Shown here piece by piece: positions 45,494 through 55,474 of a DNA stretch of 64,000 nt (position 1 is its first letter; the number at the start of each line of letters is the position of its first letter). Source of the DNA: Candidatus Bathyarchaeia archaeon (GTDB lineage: Archaea; Thermoproteota; Bathyarchaeia; 40CM-2-53-6); contig JBEKVV010000001.1 in the NCBI GenBank assembly GCA_049513715.1, positions 416,001 through 480,000 of the forward strand, read 5' to 3'. Both the position numbers and the translations under genes were made by a program. The notes under the pieces are model-generated. The model saw only the letters and a list, made by a program, of their open reading frames with translations, made no database searches and was not told where the DNA came from.

Positions 45494-45627
45494 TAAGGTT
45501 TCCCCCCCGTTGGGGCTGGGTTTGAAATTTAAGCTTTCAGCGCCGGTCGTGAAGTTGGATTTTACGATATCCACATTCGCGGCGGTGGAATCGCACAATT
45601 CAAGCGGGTTCTAAGATTGTTCGTTGG

Positions 45628-45715
45628 TTCGACGGGTGAGAATAGGTTTCAGACTGCCCGTCGAATGCCATCACTGCGCTGGCTGAGAGCGCTCTGAACT
45701 TAAAGGACGCATTAT
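45628..45715. repeat. Copy 1 of a ~85 bp structured non-coding repeat (candidate small RNA gene on the minus strand)
   Basis: TCGACGGG-N20-CCCGTCGA, then TCACTGCGCT-GGCTGAG-AGCGCTCTG-A-ACTTAA-A-GGAC; matches 47009-47091. Confidence 0.8.
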
Positions 45716-45754
45716 CTTCCATGACCACTTTTGCTCAGTTAAGGGACGCAGCTT

Positions 45755-46444: not shown

Positions 46445-47008
46445 GCCACTCGTTTCCTAGCTTGCGACAAATTCCTTCCATTCAGATAAAGGATGGTCAC
46501 ATTCCAACCAACATTGGGACATTATGGGCCTTCCATGTGGAGCACTTCATCAGGCCAATTTCTGAGGCCGTGTGCTCTCAACATCATGAGTTCCCACTCC
46601 GCCCATCGAAGTGACAGTTGATGCAATATTCGAACCACCTGAGAGAGCGTGGCGTCATCTATGTAACCAAACCAACGACGCAAACGCGAATAATGTGAAG
46701 GAACGTACACAAGGACCACCTGAATCTTATGATTCTTGCCATCCGTGAACAAATCGCCAGCGAAATCAGAACGACGTTGGAAAGCCAATCGTACTGATGA
46801 TGAAAGTAAGGCGGGAGATTTCATCTCGACAAGCAGAAGCTCGAGAGACTTTGCAAAGAATTCGCTTCGTTCTTGGTGATTGGCAACATATGAAGAGATA
46901 CTGCTGAACCGTACAGCGTAATCGCGACCAATTCGCATGGCATGCTGTTGAACAAGAAGTTCGATTTAACATAAGGAGGCTGGGAACGAGACGGGCCGCG
47001 GGAGATTG

Positions 47009-47091
47009 TCGACGGGGGATAATGAATCAGTCTGCCCGTCGAAACGTCACTGCGCCGGCTGAGGGCGCTCTGCACTTAATGGACACATCAT
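47009..47091. repeat. Copy 2 of the ~85 bp structured non-coding repeat
   Basis: TCGACGGG-N18-CCCGTCGA, then TCACTGCGCC-GGCTGAG-GGCGCTCTG-C-ACTTAA-T-GGAC. Confidence 0.8.
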
Positions 47092-47229
47092 TTTCGCGTA
47101 CGCAGTCCACTTCCAGACCGTTTGGAGATCTCTATCCATTAAATCTTCGGTAGCGCCTTGTGCCTTGGCATTTGGGTTTTGCTGCTTTGTTTTTCTGGGT
47201 CGTGAACTCTTGCAGTCGAGAGAGAGACT

Positions 47230-47252
47230 TGGTGGGGCCGGTGGGATTTGAA
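47230..47252 (-). mobile_element. att-like site: duplicated tRNA 3' end (T-loop to CCA)
   Basis: Minus strand reads TTCAAAT-CCCAC-CGGCCCC-A-CCA (T-loop, 3' T-stem, 3' acceptor strand, discriminator, CCA) with no tRNA 5' portion. Confidence 0.75.
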
Positions 47253-47301: not shown

Positions 47302-47673
47302 GCGCAATAACGACGATTCGTTGGAGTCAAGAAAAATGAACTCTGTAAGGCTACGAGTACTAATAGTACAAGTAAAAAGTTCGAGTTTGCGCGTAAAAAG
47401 TTCGTCGGCGAACATTGTCATCCTAGGGGAGTCCTACATTCCTTGACGATGCGAGAATGGTGAAACCCACCATTTCTAGGAACTACGGCCGTTTGAAGGC
47501 ATCTTTCACGTCTTTTCGTGTCAGTAGGCAGATTCTCGTGTGTCCTACGTCAAAACGTCAAGAAATCTGGTCGCGTCTCAGTGATGGCATGGACAAAACG
47601 GGCTTCAGCGCACCATTTTGGGCCTGCGTAAAAAGTTCGACTGATGGATAGTGAATTGGGCAGATTTGCGCGC
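47302..47673 (+). repeat. Copy A of a ~370 bp non-coding direct repeat
   Basis: Colinear with 51658-52027. Shared blocks include GCGCAATAACG, AGTCAAGAAAAATGAACT, GTTCGAGTTTGCGCGTAAAA, ATGCGAGAATGGTGAAACCCA, TCTTTTCGTGTCAGTAGGC, GCACCATTTTGGGCCTGCGTAAA and ATTTGCGCGC. Confidence 0.92.
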
Positions 47674-47787
47674 CTTCCACCGAACGGAAAATTTGGAAGG
47701 GTGATCAAGGTCGCTTTCCTCAAGAAGACGGACGGCTCGAAACGATGTCGCTCTCGGCGTCTTGTTTTTGTCTCTTCGCGTTTGGTC

Positions 47788-48594
47788 TTACCATGGTGGG
47801 ATGTGGTCGTACACTCGACCGTTGAGTACGCGGCAGCCGTACGCCGGCTCATGAGAAGGTGTGCTAGGTGCTGTGGGATTCTTCGGCCTGTGACACGTAC
47901 ACTTTCTGTCCCCTCCGAGCTGCTTCAGCATGAAGGGAACTTTCGCTGCTTGGCACTGCTGGACCAGGTCTAGAAACCACTTCTCTTCTGGGCGGCGTGG
48001 AGGATGCTTCGAGTCCCCTGACTCTCCGCCCGTAATTACCCACCCCAAATCTTTGAGGTAGGGCCTGAGGTCTATTGGTCCGAGCAGTGGTTCTGCTGAA
48101 ACCCATTTCAGTTTTGCTGGGACCGCTTGCAGGAACTTGATGCGTGGCGCAAATTTATCTTTTTCAACGCTGACTCCTAACCAAACATTGTCGTAGCCGT
48201 TTGGACCCCAATCTGGGGGAAGGGAACTTTGAATGTGTCCTGGGAATTTTGTAGATATTCGATACGTGTGCCACCAGGTCTGCCGCATGAACTTCCAGGT
48301 CAATGGCCGCCACTTGTCTGCGACTGGGTCGTCCACGAAAAAATCGCTCCAAGGACAGATGAATACCATTTTCGGGTCTTGCTGCTTCCAGTAGAGGGGC
48401 TTCTTGAAGGAGTGTGGCGTGCCTAGAGTCACTTCGTGTTCGTGACCCCTGTACCGTTTGTAGCGGGGCATCTGGCGCACGACCGCATAGCAGTTCTCGC
48501 AACCATCGCTGATAGGGCCGGGGCATCCGTGCCAAGGCCCCCAGCTTTCGCCCATTTTCGTCGCTATCTGGATCGTCGTCGTCTTAACGCTCAT
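47788..48594 (-). CDS. DUF5131 / phage Gp37Gp68-family three-Cys protein
   Basis: WGPWHGCPGPISDGCENCYA, VFICPWSDFF, NVWLGVSVE, WVSAEPLLG, WVITGGESG, VPFMLKQLGG. Start set at ATG 48594 after a GGAGGTGA RBS. Confidence 0.9.
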   Translation of the reverse strand: MSVKTTTIQIATKMGESWGPWHGCPGPISDGCENCYAVVRQMPRYKRYRGHEHEVTLGTPHSFKKPLYWKQQDPKMVFICPWSDFFVDDPVADKWRPLTWKFMRQTWWHTYRISTKFPGHIQSSLPPDWGPNGYDNVWLGVSVEKDKFAPRIKFLQAVPAKLKWVSAEPLLGPIDLRPYLKDLGWVITGGESGDSKHPPRRPEEKWFLDLVQQCQAAKVPFMLKQLGGDRKCTCHRPKNPTAPSTPSHEPAYGCRVLNGRVYDHIPPW

Positions 48595-48728
48595 AGATTC
48601 ACCTCCTTCGTTTCTTGTTCCCGCATAATATTCTTGTTCCAATCAGAATCAGAGAAGCAACTGTTTCTGAACCTGAGCATGTCAGTGTTGGCCAGGCCAA
48701 ACACCCGACTATTCGCCCCTCTCCTCAA
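48591..48728 (-). CDS. Possible 45-aa linker ORF
   Basis: TTG start overlaps the upstream TGA, and its TGA overlaps the DUF5131 ATG (ATGA), suggesting translational coupling. Below the ORF-track length cutoff. Confidence 0.35.
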   Translation of the reverse strand: MRRGANSRVFGLANTDMLRFRNSCFSDSDWNKNIMREQETKEVNL

Positions 48729-49249
48729 CTCCAATTCATTGGGACGACTATCATGGTACTTTTCGAAATAGGAACGAACTCCGAACGCCGTTTCCTCGAA
48801 AATGGCATCTTATAACGGCTGCAGAGTTTCTCTATTATGCTCTCTGCTTCCTTGACGGCAGCTACTGGATCCGGCTGGTCATCGTCAACAATCAATTCGA
48901 TGTGGCATTGGAAATCCTGGCGGTCTTGGACGAGCCACGCGCTGCAACCCTTGTTTTCAAACAGCTCATTGAACTCCTCAAGCTTTTGATGGATCTCCAT
49001 CTCGTCGTAGACAGTTAGATTATCATCCAAGAAGCCCTCATCACCAAACGTCACTCCACATTCGAAGTAGCCTAGACGGAGCATCTCGTCGCGGCATTGC
49101 TTGCACGCCCAGCCCAGAAATTCAAAATCATGGGCTTGGTCAGAGTCTCTAGTATGAACACTCGACACCGCTCGTGTTGACCCGCACTTGAAGCACAGAT
49201 TCTCCATCGCTGCCTCCAGGGCACGCCCATCGATTGAAAGCGTTAGCAT
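48725..49249 (-). CDS. Hypothetical protein with zinc-finger-like CxxC...CxxC and acidic domain
   Basis: CFKC...CKQC; overlaps the upstream gene stop by 7 nt. Confidence 0.7.
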   Translation of the reverse strand: MLTLSIDGRALEAAMENLCFKCGSTRAVSSVHTRDSDQAHDFEFLGWACKQCRDEMLRLGYFECGVTFGDEGFLDDNLTVYDEMEIHQKLEEFNELFENKGCSAWLVQDRQDFQCHIELIVDDDQPDPVAAVKEAESIIEKLCSRYKMPFSRKRRSEFVPISKSTMIVVPMNWS

Positions 49250-50655
49250 CGTTCAATCTCCTGCAATTCAATGATCCGAGTCCTCTGTGCGTGCGCGGCG
49301 TCGCTGAGAAAGACGGCTGGAAAGTCTTGACGAAGCAGTTTCACAGGGCGACCAGCGGTCGCAGGAGAAAAGACCTTCTGGAAAATGCAGCAAGCCCGTA
49401 GCCTGTGCCAAACCCTCGTGGCCAGAAGAATCCGTTTGCTGTACACTGTTCCGTCGGGTCGTGGTGTGACCGTCACGTGGTAGGACGCGATGTGTCCGCC
49501 CGGCCTGCAGACTCTGACGGCCTCGCGTATGTATTGGCTGTAGGTCAGCTTTCCGGTGCCGTAGCGGGCCGTCGCGTCCTCCTTGCTGTATGGAGGATCC
49601 GAGATGACTAGGGCGAACACGTTGTCTCGGAACGGAAGGTTGTGCGCGTCGGCCCGGACGTCTGGCGGCCTCCAATTCACTCCGGAGCCAAACCTCTCAG
49701 CCAGTGGATGGGTTGTTCTCAGGTCTATTCGCAGTCCGTACTCTCCCATTCCTCCGAACTGGTGCAGCACCGGCGTAGGATTGTCCAGCAAAGTGAGGAG
49801 TTTCTTCTCGAAATATCTCGGGAATCCGCCGGGGTACTTGTCGGGCTTTGGACGCGGAAGAACCCAGGCGAGTGTGGGGACGGGTGAATGTCTTGTCGGG
49901 CCGGTTGCGCCTCCGACTTCGAGTGCTTGCAGCCGCTTGGCGGCCAATGGTGTCGGACCGTTCCAGCCTTCTTTTCGCATCACGAAGGCGACCCTGACCT
50001 GGTGGCCGTTCTTTCCGTTTGGCGGCAAGCAGTAATCGCACTTGTTGCCGCACCATGTGTCCTCCTTTCGCCCGGTCAGCTTCACTCCGGGAAGGTCGGC
50101 GGGGCACACGTATTCGCCCGCCTTCGCCTGACTCGGCTCGTCTACGACCACGGCGTAATTGTCCGTCGCCTTGTCGATCTTGTCGTCGTCCAAGCCGCCC
50201 TCAGATTTTGTGACTGTGAAGTTCGGCAGAGCGGTCAGCGGTGAGAGGTCAAGGGCGGCGTGGCTCTTCGTGTAGTACCAGAAGCGGACGGCGGGCAGGC
50301 GGCGGGCTATCTCCGCCCAAGCTAGGACATAAGACTTCGTGTGGAAGTCTCCGCTCTCATGAACCCTTACGCCGATCAGCCCCACATCCAGTATCCTTGC
50401 GACCATCAGGTCTGTGAAGTCTCTCCTCAACGACGCACGAAGGTTCTCCCTCCATGCGGCCTTGACTTTTCCTCGGAGGCCCTTCAGAACCTTGAAAGTG
50501 TAGCAGAAGCCCAGGCACTGCCAGGCCCTCAGGCACGTTTCGGGTGCGGGCAGGCTCCAGTTTCCAAAAGCCGGGTGGATCTTTCTGTTTCCTTTGACAA
50601 GGTTGATCTTTTGGGCCGCCTGGCCCCACACGTTCGGACTATTCTTGCTTCCCAA
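49243..50655 (-). CDS. Fusion of a GP88-like three-Cys domain and a SAM-dependent amino-methyltransferase domain
   Basis: N-half: GNRKI, WSLPAPETCx5Cx3CY, VRVHESGDF, WAEIA, FWYYTKS, CP...Cx3Cx2C. C-half: YPGGFP, VLHQFGG, DAHNLPFRD, ISDPPY, EAVRVCRPGG. Confidence 0.8.
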   Translation of the reverse strand: MGSKNSPNVWGQAAQKINLVKGNRKIHPAFGNWSLPAPETCLRAWQCLGFCYTFKVLKGLRGKVKAAWRENLRASLRRDFTDLMVARILDVGLIGVRVHESGDFHTKSYVLAWAEIARRLPAVRFWYYTKSHAALDLSPLTALPNFTVTKSEGGLDDDKIDKATDNYAVVVDEPSQAKAGEYVCPADLPGVKLTGRKEDTWCGNKCDYCLPPNGKNGHQVRVAFVMRKEGWNGPTPLAAKRLQALEVGGATGPTRHSPVPTLAWVLPRPKPDKYPGGFPRYFEKKLLTLLDNPTPVLHQFGGMGEYGLRIDLRTTHPLAERFGSGVNWRPPDVRADAHNLPFRDNVFALVISDPPYSKEDATARYGTGKLTYSQYIREAVRVCRPGGHIASYHVTVTPRPDGTVYSKRILLATRVWHRLRACCIFQKVFSPATAGRPVKLLRQDFPAVFLSDAAHAQRTRIIELQEIERC

Positions 50656-50788
50656 TATTTTTCACTGGGAAGCACCTTGAATTTCGCGGGCAGTATCCCG
50701 CGCATTCACCGCGCACTAGTCCGGAGGGGGTGCGCGACATCAAGAATAATACGGCGGGGAGCCACGGCTACTGTGTGGTGTCCGCCAG

Positions 50789-51385
50789 ATGGTTCGCCGA
50801 TTGAGGACTACTATTCTCTATTTTCTCGTCGAGGAGCGTCCTTCACCGAAGAGGAGCAAGCGTGGGCCAGCGTGGCGCGACGAGTGCTGGAATGCGACCT
50901 CTCTGTCCAACCAGAAGAAATTGAATCCGACTTCGGTGCTTAAGGTTGTCAGCAAGTTCCGCGCCTGCGGCCTTCTGGAGCCCGAGCCCTCGTCCGCGAA
51001 GCTGGTTGAAGAACGGCTTGTTCCGACGAGGACAGAGACGAGGTCGAGGCGCACAGTCTCGACTTTTCGGGGAGCCGTTCCATGCCGCCCGACCGAGAAG
51101 GGGCGCAGGCTCGCCAAGATGATGAGGGCCATCGAAGAGAACAAGATGATGCCGGAGGAGTTCTCCGAGGACGAGGACAGAGCGGCCGAGAACGAGAAGA
51201 TCGTTTCCCGCCTCGCAGCAGCAGGCTTCACGCGGGAGGACTACGAGGCCGCCATTGAGTGCGGATTGATCGCTGAGGAGTCGAGGATGTTCAGTCGTCC
51301 GACAGTCGGATTCAGGCAGCCCGGCCTGAGCGCGGCCGACCTCGTGAGCGTCGAAGTCGCCAAGTACCGTCATCGAGTAACGTAG
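50789..51385 (+). CDS. Probable winged-helix DNA-binding protein
   Basis: LNPTSVLKVVSKFRACGLL...PTEKGRRLAKMM (MarR/PadR-like wing and TxxG helix); divergent from the GP88-MTase operon. Confidence 0.55.
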   Translation: MVRRLRTTILYFLVEERPSPKRSKRGPAWRDECWNATSLSNQKKLNPTSVLKVVSKFRACGLLEPEPSSAKLVEERLVPTRTETRSRRTVSTFRGAVPCRPTEKGRRLAKMMRAIEENKMMPEEFSEDEDRAAENEKIVSRLAAAGFTREDYEAAIECGLIAEESRMFSRPTVGFRQPGLSAADLVSVEVAKYRHRVT

Positions 51386-51463
51386 GGTTCGGCCGCCGGT
51401 CCGCCGCCGTCGACCACTGACGTCCGATTCCGCGAGATAATCTGAAAGATCTGAAAGCTAGGC

Positions 51464-51595
51464 GTGAAGTTCCTCGCACCCGGAGAGCTCAGCCGGATCA
51501 TGTCCGTCATCGACAAGGGACGAAACTCCTACAACCAGCGAACTATCCGGACCAAGGTTCGGCGGTTCAAGCGGAAAAAGAAGCAACCGAAGTAA
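51464..51595 (+). other. 43-aa ORF, possible tyrosine-recombinase fragment
   Basis: KFLAPGELSRIMSVID resembles the xLxxxE(L/V)xxL start of integrase catalytic domains; no catalytic residues follow. Confidence 0.2.
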
Positions 51596-51657
51596 TCATC
51601 GCATTTCCCATCACAGCGGCTCGCGCTTTCTATCTCGGCCGACATTTTTTACCTGAC

Positions 51658-52027
51658 GCGCAATAACGCCGATTCGTTCTAGTCAAGAAAAATGAACTTC
51701 GTGAGCCTGAGAGAAAGTGAAAGTAATGAAAATGTTCGAGTTTGCGCGTAAAATGTTCGAGTTCGAACTTTTTATTCATAGGGGAGCCCTACGTTCCTTG
51801 GCCATGCGAGAATGGTGAAACCCATCATTTCTCGGAACTACGGCTGTTTGAAGGCGTCTTTCACCTCTTTTCGTGTCAGTAGGCGGATTCTGGTGTGTTG
51901 GACGGCAAAATGCCAAGAAATTTGGTGCGTCTGAGCGGTGCCATGGACAAAAAGGGTTCCACAGCACCATTTTGGGCCTGCGTAAAGAGTTCGACTGAGG
52001 GTCAGTGAATTGCGCGTATTTGCGCGC
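51658..52027 (+). repeat. Copy B of the ~370 bp non-coding direct repeat
   Basis: Colinear with 47302-47673. Ends in three TTGCGCG units spaced 10-11 nt apart, extending to 52038. Confidence 0.92.
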
Positions 52028-52271
52028 TCATTGCGCGTTTGAAACGAACAATGCGTTATCTTGATCCTCTACGTTATTTGAGTGCAGAAGAACCCGCGTA
52101 CAAAATTCTCGTCTGCCAGTTCGGATTGCGCCAGACTGCACTTTCGGCATCCTATTGGAATTGAAGGTGCGAAGCTCGATGACAACGAGTACACAACGAG
52201 AGTCTCTCTACCGTAAGAGGGGAACACACCGGAGGAAGGCACGCATTCAGAAGCGTGGACGGACCCAGTGT

Positions 52272-52454
52272 TCATACCCTTTTGGCGATCCAGAGCCTAA
52301 GCGCCTCCTCTACGGCTCTTTGAATGTCGCCCTTGTGTAATCCAAACTTCTTGAAAACTGTTTCGCGAAACTCATGTTCGAGTGACTCTGATACTGTCAA
52401 GTTGAGTCGCACAGTTCTTTCCTCCCCACCTTTCTTCGCTTTGCCTTTGGCCAT
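52272..52454 (-). CDS. Ribbon-helix-helix (CopG-like) DNA-binding protein
   Basis: TVRLNLTVSESLEHEFRETVFKKFGLHKGDIQRAVEEALRLWI. Start set at ATG 52454. Confidence 0.8.
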   Translation of the reverse strand: MAKGKAKKGGEERTVRLNLTVSESLEHEFRETVFKKFGLHKGDIQRAVEEALRLWIAKRV

Positions 52455-52462
52455 GTGAGAAA

Positions 52463-52497
52463 CGTATGCACGTATATGGGTATAAGCGTTTGCACGT
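52463..52497. promoter_or_regulatory. Direct-repeat operator flanking the RHH gene TATA box
   Basis: CGTATGCACGT (52463-52473) and CGTTTGCACGT (52487-52497) flank a minus-strand CTTATA. Confidence 0.5.
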
Positions 52498-52624
52498 TCC
52501 AATTCTGTGCTCTTTCCGCGTTGTCGGCCTGTTTTGGAACGGAACTTTGTCCACAATTCTACGCTTGATCATGCTATTTTTGTCTGCTTTAATACTATAC
52601 AAACAGAGCTTTCGGCAATCTCTG

Positions 52625-52813
52625 TTGAGAGAAGAAAGGCAACTCGTCGACTGCGATGGTCGACCTCATGAACGCAAAAGGGGCCGAGAGAAGGAACTTT
52701 TTCAGTGCGAGTGCGGCTGGATGCTCATTCTTGTGCCGCCTCCGCCTCACTGTCTGAACAGGCGTTGCCGAAACTATCGGCCGCCTCAACTTTCCATCTG
52801 GCGAGGCGACTAA
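52625..52813 (+). CDS. Small zinc-finger protein (start uncertain)
   Basis: FQCECGW...HCLNRRC; TTTAATA promoter-like sequence at about 52588. Confidence 0.4.
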   Translation: MREERQLVDCDGRPHERKRGREKELFQCECGWMLILVPPPPHCLNRRCRNYRPPQLSIWRGD

Positions 52814-53154
52814 CTTTAGCACAGCTCTACGTTCGAGCAAAGGAGCCTGAAGGTCGATGGCCTCAGAGCTTCAATCGGACAGTCCGGATCGAGGACTCGG
52901 CCGGCCTGGTATTCCAGTCTCGTAGGGTCATCCGAGACCGTGTTCTATTGGCCTCCAGCACCGTTGGGAGGAAGCAGAACGTTGGAGGACGAAAAGGCTA
53001 CGCGGCGAAGTTCGCCGACCGGTTGACAGGCGAGGTCTACGAGGAGGTGTTCTTCGACTCGGGAGACGCGTGTCGGTGGTGCGATGCCTGCGAGCTGGCC
53101 GCCTTGAAGCGGGCCGAGAAGGCCGCCGCAGGGCCAGTCAACTTGAGCGGCTGA
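52705..53154 (+). CDS. Hypothetical protein (start uncertain)
   Basis: 149-aa ORF in a co-oriented small-gene run; 3' half looks coding (GYAAKFADRLTGEVYEEVFFD). Confidence 0.35.
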   Translation: MRVRLDAHSCAASASLSEQALPKLSAASTFHLARRLTLAQLYVRAKEPEGRWPQSFNRTVRIEDSAGLVFQSRRVIRDRVLLASSTVGRKQNVGGRKGYAAKFADRLTGEVYEEVFFDSGDACRWCDACELAALKRAEKAAAGPVNLSG

Positions 53155-53259
53155 AGCAACGCTTTGCCTTCGACATCAGTCGTCATTTTCGTTCGACTCT
53201 GACACCTGCGAAGCTTCTCCGCGCCCCGGTTATCATTGAAACGCATCCTGCGAGGGCAC

Positions 53260-53421
53260 ATGCGATGTTCGACGTGCGGCCGCGAAGCGTTTTTGCTGAG
53301 CACCGCACAGCAGTGGAGGCGTGACGACTGGGTCTACACGGAAAAGTTCTACTGCTCTTCGTGCGGAACAATGTATGTTGCAGAGGGCGGCAAGACTTGG
53401 AAACTGCAGGTGGGACAGTGA
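53260..53421 (+). CDS. Small zinc-ribbon protein
   Basis: MRCSTCG...FYCSSCG. Confidence 0.6.
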   Translation: MRCSTCGREAFLLSTAQQWRRDDWVYTEKFYCSSCGTMYVAEGGKTWKLQVGQ

Positions 53422-53467
53422 ATCGGCCACCTGTTCGCGGAAGCCGTGAGAGCCGGTTGCCTCTTCG

Positions 53468-54403
53468 TCACAAGCTCACATCGTCTCTCGTCAAGATACT
53501 TCCGCGTTCCACGGAACGCTTCGCCCGAAGAGTGAGTATGCCCTCCTGCAGGGCAAGAGCGGAGAGCGACGCACGCCGCGGGCCGTTTTGCTTTCTCAAG
53601 AACTCCATGATGACTGAGCGCACGATCTTCTCGAACCACGCGGTGCCTGGCGTCACTGTCTCGCGGCCGTCCTCGTAGTGCGTGACGAACCTTTCTGAGG
53701 CCTGGTCTGCCACTGTTGACGCCAATGAAAGGGGCTTGCCTCCGTGGGTGAATCCTGACCTGGACTCGTAGCATTGTCGCAGAAGTTCCGGGAACTTTGG
53801 GTCGTCCCTTTCGGATGCGAGTTCTTGGGGGAGGTGGGAGGAGATGAAGTGGGAGAGCTTCAGGAAGTGTCCTTCGCCCGTCTCAAAGGTGTTTGACAGG
53901 CACTCGACCGCCGTGACCAGCATGAACATGGCGAGCGTGGGGTTGTCTTCGGTCAGCGAGACCGCGACCCGGTACGCTTCGCAAGCGCGAAGGCACTGCT
54001 GCGCGTCCTTGTCGTTCAAGGAGCAGAGGCCGTTGAAAAGCGGGTTCAGTTCCGAGTCGGACTCAATCGGGCTTTTCCTTTGCCTGTGCTGTCTTCGTTG
54101 CAGAGTGATGTTGACGGTGTTGATCTTGGCCGAGTCGAACTCGATTTTCGCTCCGAATGCTAAGGAAAGCCACGCTAGGATGTACTGGGCTTCCCTTTCA
54201 GGGTTTGATGCGATCTGATCCTTCTCCCAAACGTCGGGGAATTCGAGCAGCATGTCTTCGCCGCTAGGGCTGAACGGGTCCCTCTTGGAGGGCAGAGTTG
54301 TGATCCGGTACTTGTCAAACTTGATCTCGGCTAGGTTGGGAGAGACCTCCCTTCCGCAGCTGAAGCGAACCGCAACGCGGTGGACTTCGCGCTCTTCTTT
54401 CAT
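53468..54403 (-). CDS. ApeA-like HEPN-domain protein
   Basis: FMLVTAVECLS helix and YESRSGFTHGG (Rx4H HEPN motif). Start set at ATG 54403. Confidence 0.7.
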   Translation of the reverse strand: MKEEREVHRVAVRFSCGREVSPNLAEIKFDKYRITTLPSKRDPFSPSGEDMLLEFPDVWEKDQIASNPEREAQYILAWLSLAFGAKIEFDSAKINTVNITLQRRQHRQRKSPIESDSELNPLFNGLCSLNDKDAQQCLRACEAYRVAVSLTEDNPTLAMFMLVTAVECLSNTFETGEGHFLKLSHFISSHLPQELASERDDPKFPELLRQCYESRSGFTHGGKPLSLASTVADQASERFVTHYEDGRETVTPGTAWFEKIVRSVIMEFLRKQNGPRRASLSALALQEGILTLRAKRSVERGSILTRDDVSL

Positions 54404-54508
54404 GCGTGGAGAAGTGTGGGCACGGCTCTTATCTGAACTTCGCAAATGGGGCACACGGACATTGGGATGCGTTTTCCCGGGAAAACGCGGTAGACGGAAA
54501 GCCCTGGT

Positions 54509-54871
54509 CTATGGTTCGATACTCTTTCTCGCAATTTCGCCAATGGCGGGGACGATTGCCCAAATCAACCACACAAAGACGGCGATTCCCGACCCCAAGG
54601 TGAGTGTCGACAAGCTGAGCCAGACATTTCCCGTTAGAACTAACAGTACGGCGGCCGCCAGAATCGTCCCCAGTAAGAGCGGAGTGAAAACGTACCATGT
54701 CCAAAGCATGAGTACCTTCTTGCCCATTAAACCGAAGGCGGGTTCTCGGATCTTACGCCCGACTCTTCTCACAAATCTGACCGCAAACAGAACTACATTG
54801 ATTGCCCAGAAGAGAAGTGACAGCGCTCCCAACGTGGAAACGATTTCATCCAATTGTGAACTCGCGACCAA
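54509..54871 (-). CDS. Hypothetical membrane protein
   Basis: Three hydrophobic segments; co-oriented upstream of the HEPN gene. Confidence 0.5.
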   Translation of the reverse strand: MVASSQLDEIVSTLGALSLLFWAINVVLFAVRFVRRVGRKIREPAFGLMGKKVLMLWTWYVFTPLLLGTILAAAVLLVLTGNVWLSLSTLTLGSGIAVFVWLIWAIVPAIGEIARKSIEP

Positions 54872-55032
54872 GAGCCGGTAATCCTGCCTATAGACATTTT
54901 GAGTTTTCCGGCGGGAAAGGCGTTTTCTCAGGAAAACGCGCTCCGCAGAAAGGCTTGGCAGGGCATCCGGGTGCCTTGCGTTATTATCGGTTCACTAGGC
55001 GAACTAACCCGTTCCTTAAATTCGCAGCGAAA

Positions 55033-55474
55033 GGTGAGGGTGAGAGCCTTGACAGGCGAACCGACCAGGGCATTCAGCCAAAAGGCCGACCTACTTGAGG
55101 TCTTCCGCTGGGAGCCGTCTACATATTTCACCAATCTGCAGGCAGAGGTAGCCGAGGAGATAGTCCTCTTCCTTCGCAACAACGGAAAGGACACAGGGCA
55201 GGAAACATACACGCACTGGAGGAGCGGCGATGTGTGGAGACTCGTCAGGGTTTCCCGCGCAGCGTTCCACAAGTTTGCTGAGTCGCAGAAGCTGTGCAGC
55301 TCACGGTACGTCTGGAAGGTCATGAGAAAGCTGGTGGCCCTCGGCTACGTTCGAGTGTTCACTCTGAAAGGGCAGAAGGGCTACGGCCTCGTTGTCAACG
55401 CCATGAAGCGGCACAAGGTGTCCGCGAGCCGCTACGAAAAGTTCATGGCACCATTGAGAAAAACGGCGAGTTGA
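55033..55474 (+). CDS. Probable winged-helix DNA-binding protein
   Basis: SSRYVWKVMRKLVALGYVRVF...KGYGL. Start probably GTG 55033-55040 region rather than 54899. Confidence 0.55.

Follow-up and report, generated by a model that had tools for sequence, protein, structure and literature searches.

A GP88::methyltransferase fusion in the cargo of a decayed archaeal integrative element, and a GP88 clade encoded beside DNA methyltransferases

GP88 is a widespread, mostly viral protein family, for which literature searches returned no characterisation. What might such a protein do when it is joined in frame to a methyltransferase (MTase), in an archaeal operon bracketed by two direct repeats? The locus that raises this question lies in a 64,000-nucleotide stretch of DNA from a Candidatus Bathyarchaeia archaeon (the window). 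A GP88 clade coupled or fused to MTases offers a concrete lead to the GP88 substrate, and a 470-aa fusion places both putative activities in one testable protein. Passages of a 2021 paper name just spore photoproduct lyase (SPL) and that paper's own gp53 as DNA-associated radical-SAM enzymes (PMC8989533), and a further DNA radical-SAM enzyme would therefore matter. If GP88 is merely co-expressed with its neighbour, the locus is ordinary mobile-element cargo.

The features of the locus are collected in Table 1. The minus-strand operon runs from the GP88::MTase fusion through a 174-aa and a 47-aa open reading frame (ORF) to a DUF5131 gene, with overlaps at all three junctions, and a winged-helix (wHTH)-like regulator gene diverges from it. 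A preliminary description of this DNA had proposed such an arrangement, and it holds, including a possible 45-aa ORF, present as the 47-aa ORF. A proposed zinc-finger protein stands in part: the Cys-rich ORF with its CxxC pairs is there, but no family match backs the name 'zinc finger'. Homologues of this 174-aa ORF were not found outside the strain, and an ESM Atlas search gave no usable lead; homologue searches with the 47-aa ORF were empty. Relatives of the regulator match MarR_2/HTH_23, and by alignment regulator homologues are divergent from GP88 in about six of 12 related loci. A promoter and terminator scan, of bacterial type, gave results at chance level.

Table 1. Features of the repeat-bracketed unit and its surroundings (window coordinates).
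Feature	Position	Strand	Remarks
tRNA 3′-end fragment (att-like)	47230-47252	-	50 nt left of R1; left island edge
Repeat R1	47302-47673	.	non-coding; 14-nt iterated motif x3; short GC-rich inverted ends
DUF5131 (Gp37/Gp68), radical-SAM superfamily	47788-48594	-	CX7CX2C; about 268 aa; without TcmP partner
47-aa ORF	48591-48734	-	coupled to both neighbours
174-aa acidic Cys-rich ORF	48725-49249	-	two CxxC pairs
GP88::MTase fusion, 470 aa	49243-50655	-	GP88 domain aa ~14-250, MTase aa 258-428
Minimal amino-MTase part of fusion	49372-49884	-	FGG motif then DPPY; without target-recognition domain
Divergent winged-helix-like regulator, 198 aa	50789-51385	+	tblastn to L177/L180, E 2e-14
43-aa basic ORF	51464-51595	+	weak DUF7626 match, below cut-off
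Repeat R2	51658-52027	.	
Rest of decayed element	52272-55474	.	RHH gene 52272-52556, then L003-like genes

The fusion of a GP88-like domain to a DPPY MTase, as originally read from the sequence, was confirmed by two profile matches on the 470-aa ORF, PF17338 (GP88) at aa 29-180 (E 6e-27, 95.3 bits against a gathering cut-off of 24.4) and phrog_3816 at aa 272-428 (E 5e-11). An assembly artefact was considered and rejected, because the 470 aa recur without a difference in five other assemblies (L167-L171), and homologues also back the reading frame of the window. A 2-nt deletion is carried by L172 alone, the single assembly behind P0001 (310 aa, frameshifted after aa 215). No other fusion of GP88 to a minimal MTase was found among the best 150 of 2201 matches in a representative protein library.

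For the GP88 half, membership of PF17338/PHROG 1392 is borne out by conserved N-x-K, CX5CX3C, RxHxxGD and TK motifs, and by the first ESM Atlas matches, which are GP88 clusters at 0.97. The non-canonical three-Cys motif CX5CX3C (here C41/47/51, with the additional C184/202/206/209 in the fusion) is kept in 74-76 of 76 GP88 sequences. In the structural model (pLDDT 91.6), all of the top 14 matches are radical-SAM enzymes, headed by QueE (rmsd 4.0, 149 aligned) at Z 7.0, under the bar of Z 8 set for the comparison, and including SuiB (Z 6.6), viperin (6.5), PFL-AE (6.5) and SPL (6.4); Foldseek gave no match to the model at E<=0.001. A profile alignment (hhalign) relates GP88 to DUF5131 (P 80%, E 1.4e-5), and passages of a published analysis group DUF5131 beside SPL (PMC9477430). 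The proposed resemblance of both families to radical-SAM enzymes is upheld by these comparisons, and the model lends modest support to a small radical-SAM fold for GP88, in which CX5CX3C would hold a [4Fe-4S] cluster. Although the fold is QueE-like, we did not favour a deazaguanine pathway, because no QueC-, QueD- or DpdA-type gene was found in the unit by Pfam.

Judged from its sequence, the DPPY domain is an amino-methyltransferase akin to the N6/N4 MTases of DNA, in line with the original assignment of the motif to N6A/N4C enzymes. Its profile matches M.RsrI best (E 1.6e-6) and also M.PvuII; D99-P-P is invariant in 35 sequences; and modelling and fold searches give a class I SAM fold that has motif I and, as motif IV, DPPY. 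Viral relatives of this minimal MTase share 28-71% identity with it. The domain thus resembles the orphan beta-class (M.RsrI/M.PvuII fold) DNA amino-MTases of mobile elements in its SAM-binding motif, DPPY motif and profile matches, but it differs from them in its permuted order (motif I before IV), its size of ~170 aa, its lack of a target-recognition domain and its fusion to a radical-SAM-like domain. Moreover, the cues to its substrate are split, with sequence pointing to DNA MTases and structure to the tRNA m2G enzymes TrmN/Trm11, whose catalytic domains are the best matches to the model (Z 13.1); an RNA target is therefore possible.

Is the pairing of GP88 with an MTase peculiar to this locus? 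Of 15 close loci, 14 have an MTase no more than 1.5 kb from GP88, and the remaining one, L182, ends at GP88; with duplicates merged (L174 = L175, L177 = L180), 12 distinct loci can be evaluated. In this archaeal clade GP88 adjoins, or is fused to, a DNA amino-MTase in all 12, and the coupling thus reaches beyond the present locus, although the 12 loci are kin, several of one element type, and therefore do not represent 12 independent events. The MTase HMMs derive from these very neighbours of GP88, and Pfam or PHROG independently confirmed the MTase in nine of the 11 loci other than that of the window. Another modelled MTase lies within 1.5 kb in 22 of 524 background windows (4%) of the same loci, a figure that is understated, since the type I HsdM of L003 falls outside the models and host flanks are included. 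The slot beside GP88 is filled by four types of MTase, namely full beta-class N6/N4 enzymes, the small phrog_24333, a ParB-MT-A70 fusion and the minimal DPPY fusion, and within two supported subclades of the GP88 tree (98/88 and 100/100) these types are intermingled. In L016, L174, L179 and L181 a stop/start overlap couples the GP88 and MTase genes, and in L022 the MTase is divergent from GP88 and not co-transcribed. A second in-frame fusion, GP88-ParB-MT-A70, is found in L021 and P0002. That GP88 stands beside DNA MTases of four families hints that it works on DNA.

The sampled viral members of the family differ in this respect. With the HMMs, no MTase was found near GP88 in 80 viral, 59 distant metagenomic or 23 other archaeal loci (162 in total), nor by Pfam among 142 neighbours from 28 distant GP88 loci, and hence an MTase is not a general requirement of GP88.

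The reading that we prefer, at a probability of roughly 0.55, is that of a wHTH-regulated DNA-protection operon with GP88 as a DNA-directed accessory enzyme, the whole unit being cargo of a decayed element. Its conserved core would consist of the divergent wHTH gene, as the presumed regulator, and an operon starting with GP88 followed by a DNA N6-adenine/N4-cytosine MTase, here fused. By homology, and from what orphan MTases are known to do on mobile DNA, the MTase would most likely methylate the DNA of the element and so shield it from host restriction. GP88 may have been kept with the MTase because, while the element becomes established, it acts on that DNA too or on its nucleotides. The DUF5131, 174-aa and 47-aa genes could be swappable cargo out of the same gene pool.

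The pairing might instead reflect co-expression only, GP88 and the MTase both being made on entry from an early wHTH-controlled operon while GP88 does an unrelated job, such as viperin- or QueE-like synthesis of a small molecule or modified nucleotide, or redox sensing. That GP88 stands alone in the distant loci and in varied phage contexts fits this account, as does the free exchange of MTase families, which is hard to square with a specific interface between the proteins; according to passages of one source, establishment genes on mobile DNA commonly include orphan MTases (PMC11541004). Against it, there are two independent in-frame fusions, the stop/start overlaps persist through MTase swaps, and the adjacent slot holds amino-MTases only, never the C5 MTase of L174. 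We regard it as possible, on the unlikely side.

The same pairing evidence would also suit a more ambitious scheme, to which we assign a low probability, in which m6A or m4C is written by the MTase and GP88, here possibly together with DUF5131, then turns the methylated base into a new one, or reverses it, by a 5′-deoxyadenosyl radical. Radical-SAM enzymes acting on DNA bases have precedents in the glycinyl-thymine isomerase gp53 of phage M6 and in SPL, as presented in passages of PMC8989533; SPL is among the GP88 matches, and the grouping of DUF5131 beside it points the same way. In one viral GP88 lineage (L109/L111/L123), ADDT and TET/JBP DNA-modification genes are found a short way upstream of GP88, but this case amounts to one lineage, its three contigs are near-identical, and a terminase-like gene separates these genes from GP88. 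Furthermore, the four MTase families would be expected to differ in the sequences they target, and perhaps in the base as well, and most GP88 genes have no MTase nearby. Compared with the M6 system as described there, this locus has no 5-hmdU, amino-acid transferase, kinase or PLP genes, and the partner is a methyltransferase. In its specific form, GP88 would be a radical-SAM 'second writer' that turns the m6A or m4C of an interchangeable neighbouring MTase into a new DNA base, which we likewise hold to be doubtful; if true, it would mean two-step DNA hypermodification on archaeal mobile DNA, in which the fusion would unite both steps in one polypeptide and DUF5131 could optionally add a third.

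The role of DUF5131 bears on the earlier proposal of a self-contained, repeat-mobilised three-enzyme cassette for defence or modification, whose repeats would serve for its excision or as the source of an RNA. The DUF5131 assignment itself is secure (PF07505, E 2.5e-50, 171.7 bits against a cut-off of 28.9), the CX7CX2C and downstream motifs are kept in the alignment, and the likely start, ATG 48594, lies behind GGAGG and overlaps the preceding stop. The coupling of the genes in one operon favours the cassette, and so do matches of DUF5131 to the PADLOC candidates PDC-M41B and PDC-M30B (E 7e-44 and 5e-42), a 70%-identical DUF5131 situated 5.8 kb from GP88 in L174, and the DUF5131 of L008, immediately followed by a gene distantly related to the minimal MTase. 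The main text of the PADLOC preprint does not name PDC-M30 or PDC-M41. However, the trio of GP88, DUF5131 and MTase forms one operon here only and did not prove to be a conserved set, DUF5131 being present in two of eight long related loci, none of 80 viral GP88 loci and none of 21 viral MTase loci. The copy is of a divergent, phage-like subtype, with 35-44% identity to most copies of the order. In contrast to the known TcmP/DUF5131 pair (TIGR04474 + PF07505; PDC-M30, PDC-M41), whose DUF5131 component it matches, it has no TcmP beside it; TIGR04474 is absent from the local ORFs and from the genome, and the suggestion that the MTase is a TcmP-like partner is not borne out.

The repeats also tell against the cassette, which we consider very improbable. 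Two non-coding direct repeats of ~370 bp do enclose the unit, as first described, with 82.8% identity over 373 nt, a spacing of 4355 nt and E 1.7e-104, and they are the sole two copies in the 2.79-Mb genome. A search for the flanking repeat in other neighbourhoods came back empty: no homologue was found in 60 relatives, by nhmmer over the genome and the loci up to L246, in viral contigs (18-mer) or in plasmids, and local alignments to the iterated-motif regions of L016, L022 and L174 and to L003 stayed at shuffle level. Nor is there a sign of mobilisation by the repeats. Depth is flat, one contig spans both repeats, the R1-R2 joint of an excised 4.36-kb circle was not found in four runs (as contigs, which drop rare variants), and no recombinase gene occurs in the unit or the window. 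An RNA component fares no better, with no Rfam match in either copy and RNA fold z-scores of -1.04 (+) and -0.43 (-) for R1 and -2.36 (+) and -1.52 (-) for R2 (DNA fold of R2(+), z -2.9). R2(+) alone folds better than shuffles, and no fold is common to both copies, which speaks against a structured ncRNA or a single-stranded DNA promoter (Frpo/ssi-like); both repeats lie downstream of minus-strand genes, unlike such promoters. A decayed gene was rejected, as no frame is open in both copies and there is no tblastx match under E 0.1; the repeats are non-coding as far as tested. Substitutions by codon position (14/20/31) show a weak third-position bias, mostly within a stop-rich stretch. R1 probably serves the element as a cis region bound by protein, and both copies may be such cis-acting regions, now inert, the duplication having perhaps arisen when two related elements or fragments were joined in tandem.

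The integrative element that carries the repeat-bracketed unit as cargo is tRNA-associated and decayed, and its host is a peat archaeon. Similarity to the relative G014 ends at window position 47197, close to the att-like tRNA fragment, which recurs exactly at tRNA-type 3′ ends (C2:373529, C3:166082 and C3:181371) and as an orphan copy (C5:203113), and within 2 mismatches at 14 places in the genome. No co-oriented partner of the fragment lies downstream on C1, and an intact target tRNA was found upstream of purA in none of 16 relatives. With one tRNA fragment, and no integrase (PF00589) match in the window, the locus is not an intact tyrosine-integrase element. It resembles the cryptic integrated elements of archaea, as outlined in parts of Krupovic et al. 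(2019, PMC6563490), in being small integrated DNA with RHH and wHTH genes, MTases and a tRNA fragment at its edge, and its sister element L003 has the primase-type replication genes. This copy differs from them in having no integrase, primase or second att site, and its 372-nt repeats are not att cores. Beyond the RHH gene, its genes are 70-90% identical to those of L003, an integrase/primase-polymerase element (C1:94.8-103.3 kb) whose ~3.2-kb primase block is missing here between 52603 and 52625. Integrases or primase-like genes lie beside the relatives in L178, L180 and L003.

The two direct repeats, R1 and R2, bracket a minus-strand operon and a divergent wHTH-like gene, an arrangement that had been reported in the preliminary description of this DNA and is confirmed by the coordinates and repeat identity (see table) and by the overlap at every gene junction of the operon; the interpretation then placed on it is partly supported. 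The stretch (G000:C1:416001-480000) lies in a genome of 2.79 Mb in 11 contigs, where R1 and R2 are the sole copies of the repeat, and is also contained in peat and wetland metagenome runs. Each repeat has short GC-rich inverted ends, and a 14-nt motif is iterated three times in R1 and twice in R2. The fusion of GP88 (PF17338) with a DPPY methyltransferase (MTase) recurs identically over 470 aa in five further assemblies (L167-L171), which excludes an assembly error; these may share samples with the source and are uninformative on its spread. A 2-nt deletion in the fusion gene of one other assembly (L172) accounts for a frameshifted database protein (P0001). Homologues of the 174-aa and 47-aa ORFs were not found in related loci.

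Features of the repeat-bracketed unit and its left flank (window coordinates)
Feature	Position	Strand or direction	Remarks
purA-upstream motif, copy 1	45626-45720	-	~95 nt, non-coding; copies 80% identical
Uncharacterised ORF pair, 229 and 138 aa	45755-46938	-	between motif copies
purA-upstream motif, copy 2	47005-47097	-
tRNA 3' fragment, 23 nt	47230		50 nt left of R1
Repeat R1	47302-47673		probably non-coding; 82.8% identity to R2 over 373 nt
DUF5131	likely start 48594	-	last gene of operon
47-aa ORF		-	between 174-aa ORF and DUF5131
Cys-rich ORF, 174 aa		-	after GP88::MTase
GP88::MTase fusion, 470 aa	49243-50655	-	first gene of operon
wHTH-like gene	50789-51385	opposite to operon
43-aa ORF		opposite to operon	same direction as wHTH-like gene
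Repeat R2	51658-52027		82.8% identity to R1 over 373 nt

The bracketed 4.4 kb is a piece of a larger, decayed integrative element, because the island starts left of R1 and homology to another element of the genome (C1:94.8-103.3 kb) lies right of R2. The left boundary follows from the tRNA fragment and from the end of similarity to the related genome G014 at 47197. Such tRNA tails match at 14 places in the genome within 2 mismatches, and the fragment may belong to this set instead of being a classical attR. Right of R2, up to 55474, an RHH gene and further ORFs are 70-90% identical to the second element, which carries an integrase, a primase-polymerase and type I RM cargo; the window copy has no primase block, and no integrase was found within the 64-kb window. 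By comparison with the classes of archaeal integrated elements set out in the accessible part of PMC6563490, the unit is orphan-MTase cargo of such an element, linked to an uncharacterised radical-SAM family. A separate 15-kb element with an integrase (C3:166082-181371) has the tRNA 3' core seen at 47230 on either side.

The resemblance of GP88 and DUF5131 (PF07505, Gp37/Gp68) to radical-SAM enzymes, proposed earlier, is supported by a conserved Cys triad in GP88 and by mutual profile alignment, and model-based fold matches of GP88 are consistent with it. The GP88 domain model (pLDDT 91.6) had zero Foldseek matches at E<=0.001; against 48,161 chains, its best 14 matches were all radical-SAM enzymes, with QueE first (Z 7.0, rmsd 4.0, 149 aligned) and SuiB (Z 6.6), viperin (6.5), PFL-AE (6.5) and SPL (6.4) also matching, so the modelled fold is consistent with the radical-SAM type at scores below the tool's bar of Z 8. 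Of 76 sequences, 74-76 retain C41, C47 and C51, and 46-52 retain four additional Cys. The GP88 and DUF5131 profiles align (P 80%, E 1.4e-5), and the accessible part of PMC9477430 places DUF5131 in radical-SAM Megacluster 5-2, beside spore photoproduct lyase. The DUF5131 of the unit matches PADLOC PDC-M41B/M30B; the partner with which this family was said often to pair, TcmP (TIGR04474), is absent from the whole genome.

The C-terminal domain of the fusion is a class I MTase (model pLDDT 91.9) of permuted order, without a target-recognition domain. Its profile matches M.RsrI (E 1.6e-6) and M.PvuII, the closest fold to its model is TrmN/Trm11 (Z 13.1), and its target is likely DNA. Other members of this minimal DPPY family are joined to Trm112 (P0006) or a C5 DNA MTase (P0050), and one (P0042) has a long insert, intein-like by eye. 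A ParB-Trm11-like fusion is known from an Asgard element, with no radical-SAM gene there in the accessible part of PMC11529989.

Among close GP88 relatives (41-57% identity), a DNA amino-MTase adjoins GP88 in 14 of 15 loci, or 12/12 once two duplicates and L182, a locus ending at GP88, are dropped. The partner is a full beta-class N6/N4 MTase in L016, L178, L179, L181 and, divergently, L022; a small ~220-aa DPPY MTase (phrog_24333) in L173, L174, L176, L180 and L183; part of a GP88-ParB-MT-A70 fusion in L021 (9344-11209, minus strand, with a further N6/N4 MTase behind it) and in protein P0002; and the fused minimal MTase in the window. Pfam or PHROG confirmed the MTase assignments apart from those of L176 and L183, made with our own profile. 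The MTase types interleave on a 43-row GP88 tree, inside two supported subclades whose joint monophyly is unsupported (54/52). As kin loci are not independent, the argument for pairing rests on these family swaps and not on the count; a rough, understated background from 11 element loci has an MTase near 22 of 524 windows. A divergent wHTH homologue occurs in about six GP88-MTase loci.

Farther afield, profiles made from close-clade MTases, and less sensitive for others, detected no MTase up to 1.5 kb from GP88 in any of 23 other archaeal loci (omitting L057 and L247, which do not match the GP88 profile, and L250-L252, below the cut-off), 80 viral loci or 59 distant metagenomic loci; both flanks were complete in 48 of the viral and 25 of the metagenomic loci. 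A Pfam scan of 142 neighbours of 28 distant loci gave zero DNA MTases. Of the neighbourhood first proposed, GP88 with an amino-MTase stands for the close loci and was detected in none of these 162, and DUF5131 is rarely present. The same Pfam scan placed one GP88 lineage beside ADDT and TET/JBP genes; in viral L111 (1373-5794; also L109, L123), ADDT and TET/JBP are followed by a small terminase-like ORF, then by GP88 and then by the terminase large subunit. The second GP88 of the source genome (C8:76279-80500; L016 10279-14500) is followed by its full N6/N4 MTase, an uncharacterised 520-aa ORF and an iterated CG-rich motif array, which resembles arrays in L022 and L174. In protein P0010, the N-terminal region before GP88 looks ParB-like by eye. 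GP88 also occurs in 12 of 23 genomes of another family of the phylum (L253-L268, L187-L190), possibly as a domesticated clade; in L187 and L190 it sits amid housekeeping genes and lacks a neighbouring MTase. No account of GP88 paired with an MTase emerged from a literature search outside subscription journals and preprint supplements, sources that may bear on this point.

We favour, at a probability of roughly 55%, a protection operon of a mobile element: the wHTH regulator would control the operon, the MTase would protect the element's DNA, and GP88 would serve as a radical-SAM accessory on DNA or nucleotides. The accessible parts of PMC11541004 and PMC8989533 provide, respectively, an orphan-MTase role on mobile DNA and a precedent for a radical-SAM enzyme working on DNA. 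GP88 and the MTase might instead be co-expressed without a common pathway, which we hold to be unlikely though credible; true hypermodification, in which the methylated base is further altered, appears less likely still.

The original reading, a three-enzyme cassette mobilised by its repeats, is now highly improbable. Among 105 genomes of the order, DUF5131 is above cut-off in 15 and GP88 in 4, and the two adjoin solely in the window, lying 22 kb apart in G016. Eight of the distinct close loci span 9 kb or more (window, L016, L021, L022, L173, L174, L180, L181); among them only the window and L174 have DUF5131, the L174 copy being 70% identical, 5.8 kb from GP88 and on the other strand. In bacterial L008, DUF5131 immediately precedes a distant minimal MTase. 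A further member of the trio was found in 0/80 viral GP88 loci and 0/21 viral minimal-MTase loci, in flanks of at most 6 kb, many of them truncated.

Mobilisation by the repeats is likewise unsupported: in four runs read depth is flat over the unit (for example 240.7 against flanks of 245.5 and 239.7), a single contig spans both repeats, and no R1-R2 joint was found in the contigs searched. Since contigs drop rare variants, excision may still occur rarely. Homologues of R1/R2 were not found in 60 relatives, the compared loci, viral contigs or plasmids. The suggestion that the repeats supply an RNA component is not supported, with no Rfam match and only R2(+) folding better than shuffles (z -2.4 as RNA, -2.9 as DNA), which R1 does not. 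Differing iterated-motif arrays lie near the GP88-MTase genes of L016, L022 and L174, with no sequence similarity to the repeats found; by analogy, a role as a protein-binding cis region is probable for the repeat, which would have been duplicated through tandem capture of related element pieces.

The motif upstream of purA is present in 16/16 same-genus genomes with a purA match (one only partial) and is tandem in L273, L282 and L285. It shows two hairpins with two-sided changes at 3 of 13 pairs, has no Rfam match, and is a candidate for an archaeal riboswitch or leader, or for a small RNA of C/D type; no riboswitch at purA of Bathyarchaeia was found in the literature. In G014 (L273) the copies are adjacent, without the intervening ORFs, which in the window are a separate 1.26-kb insertion.
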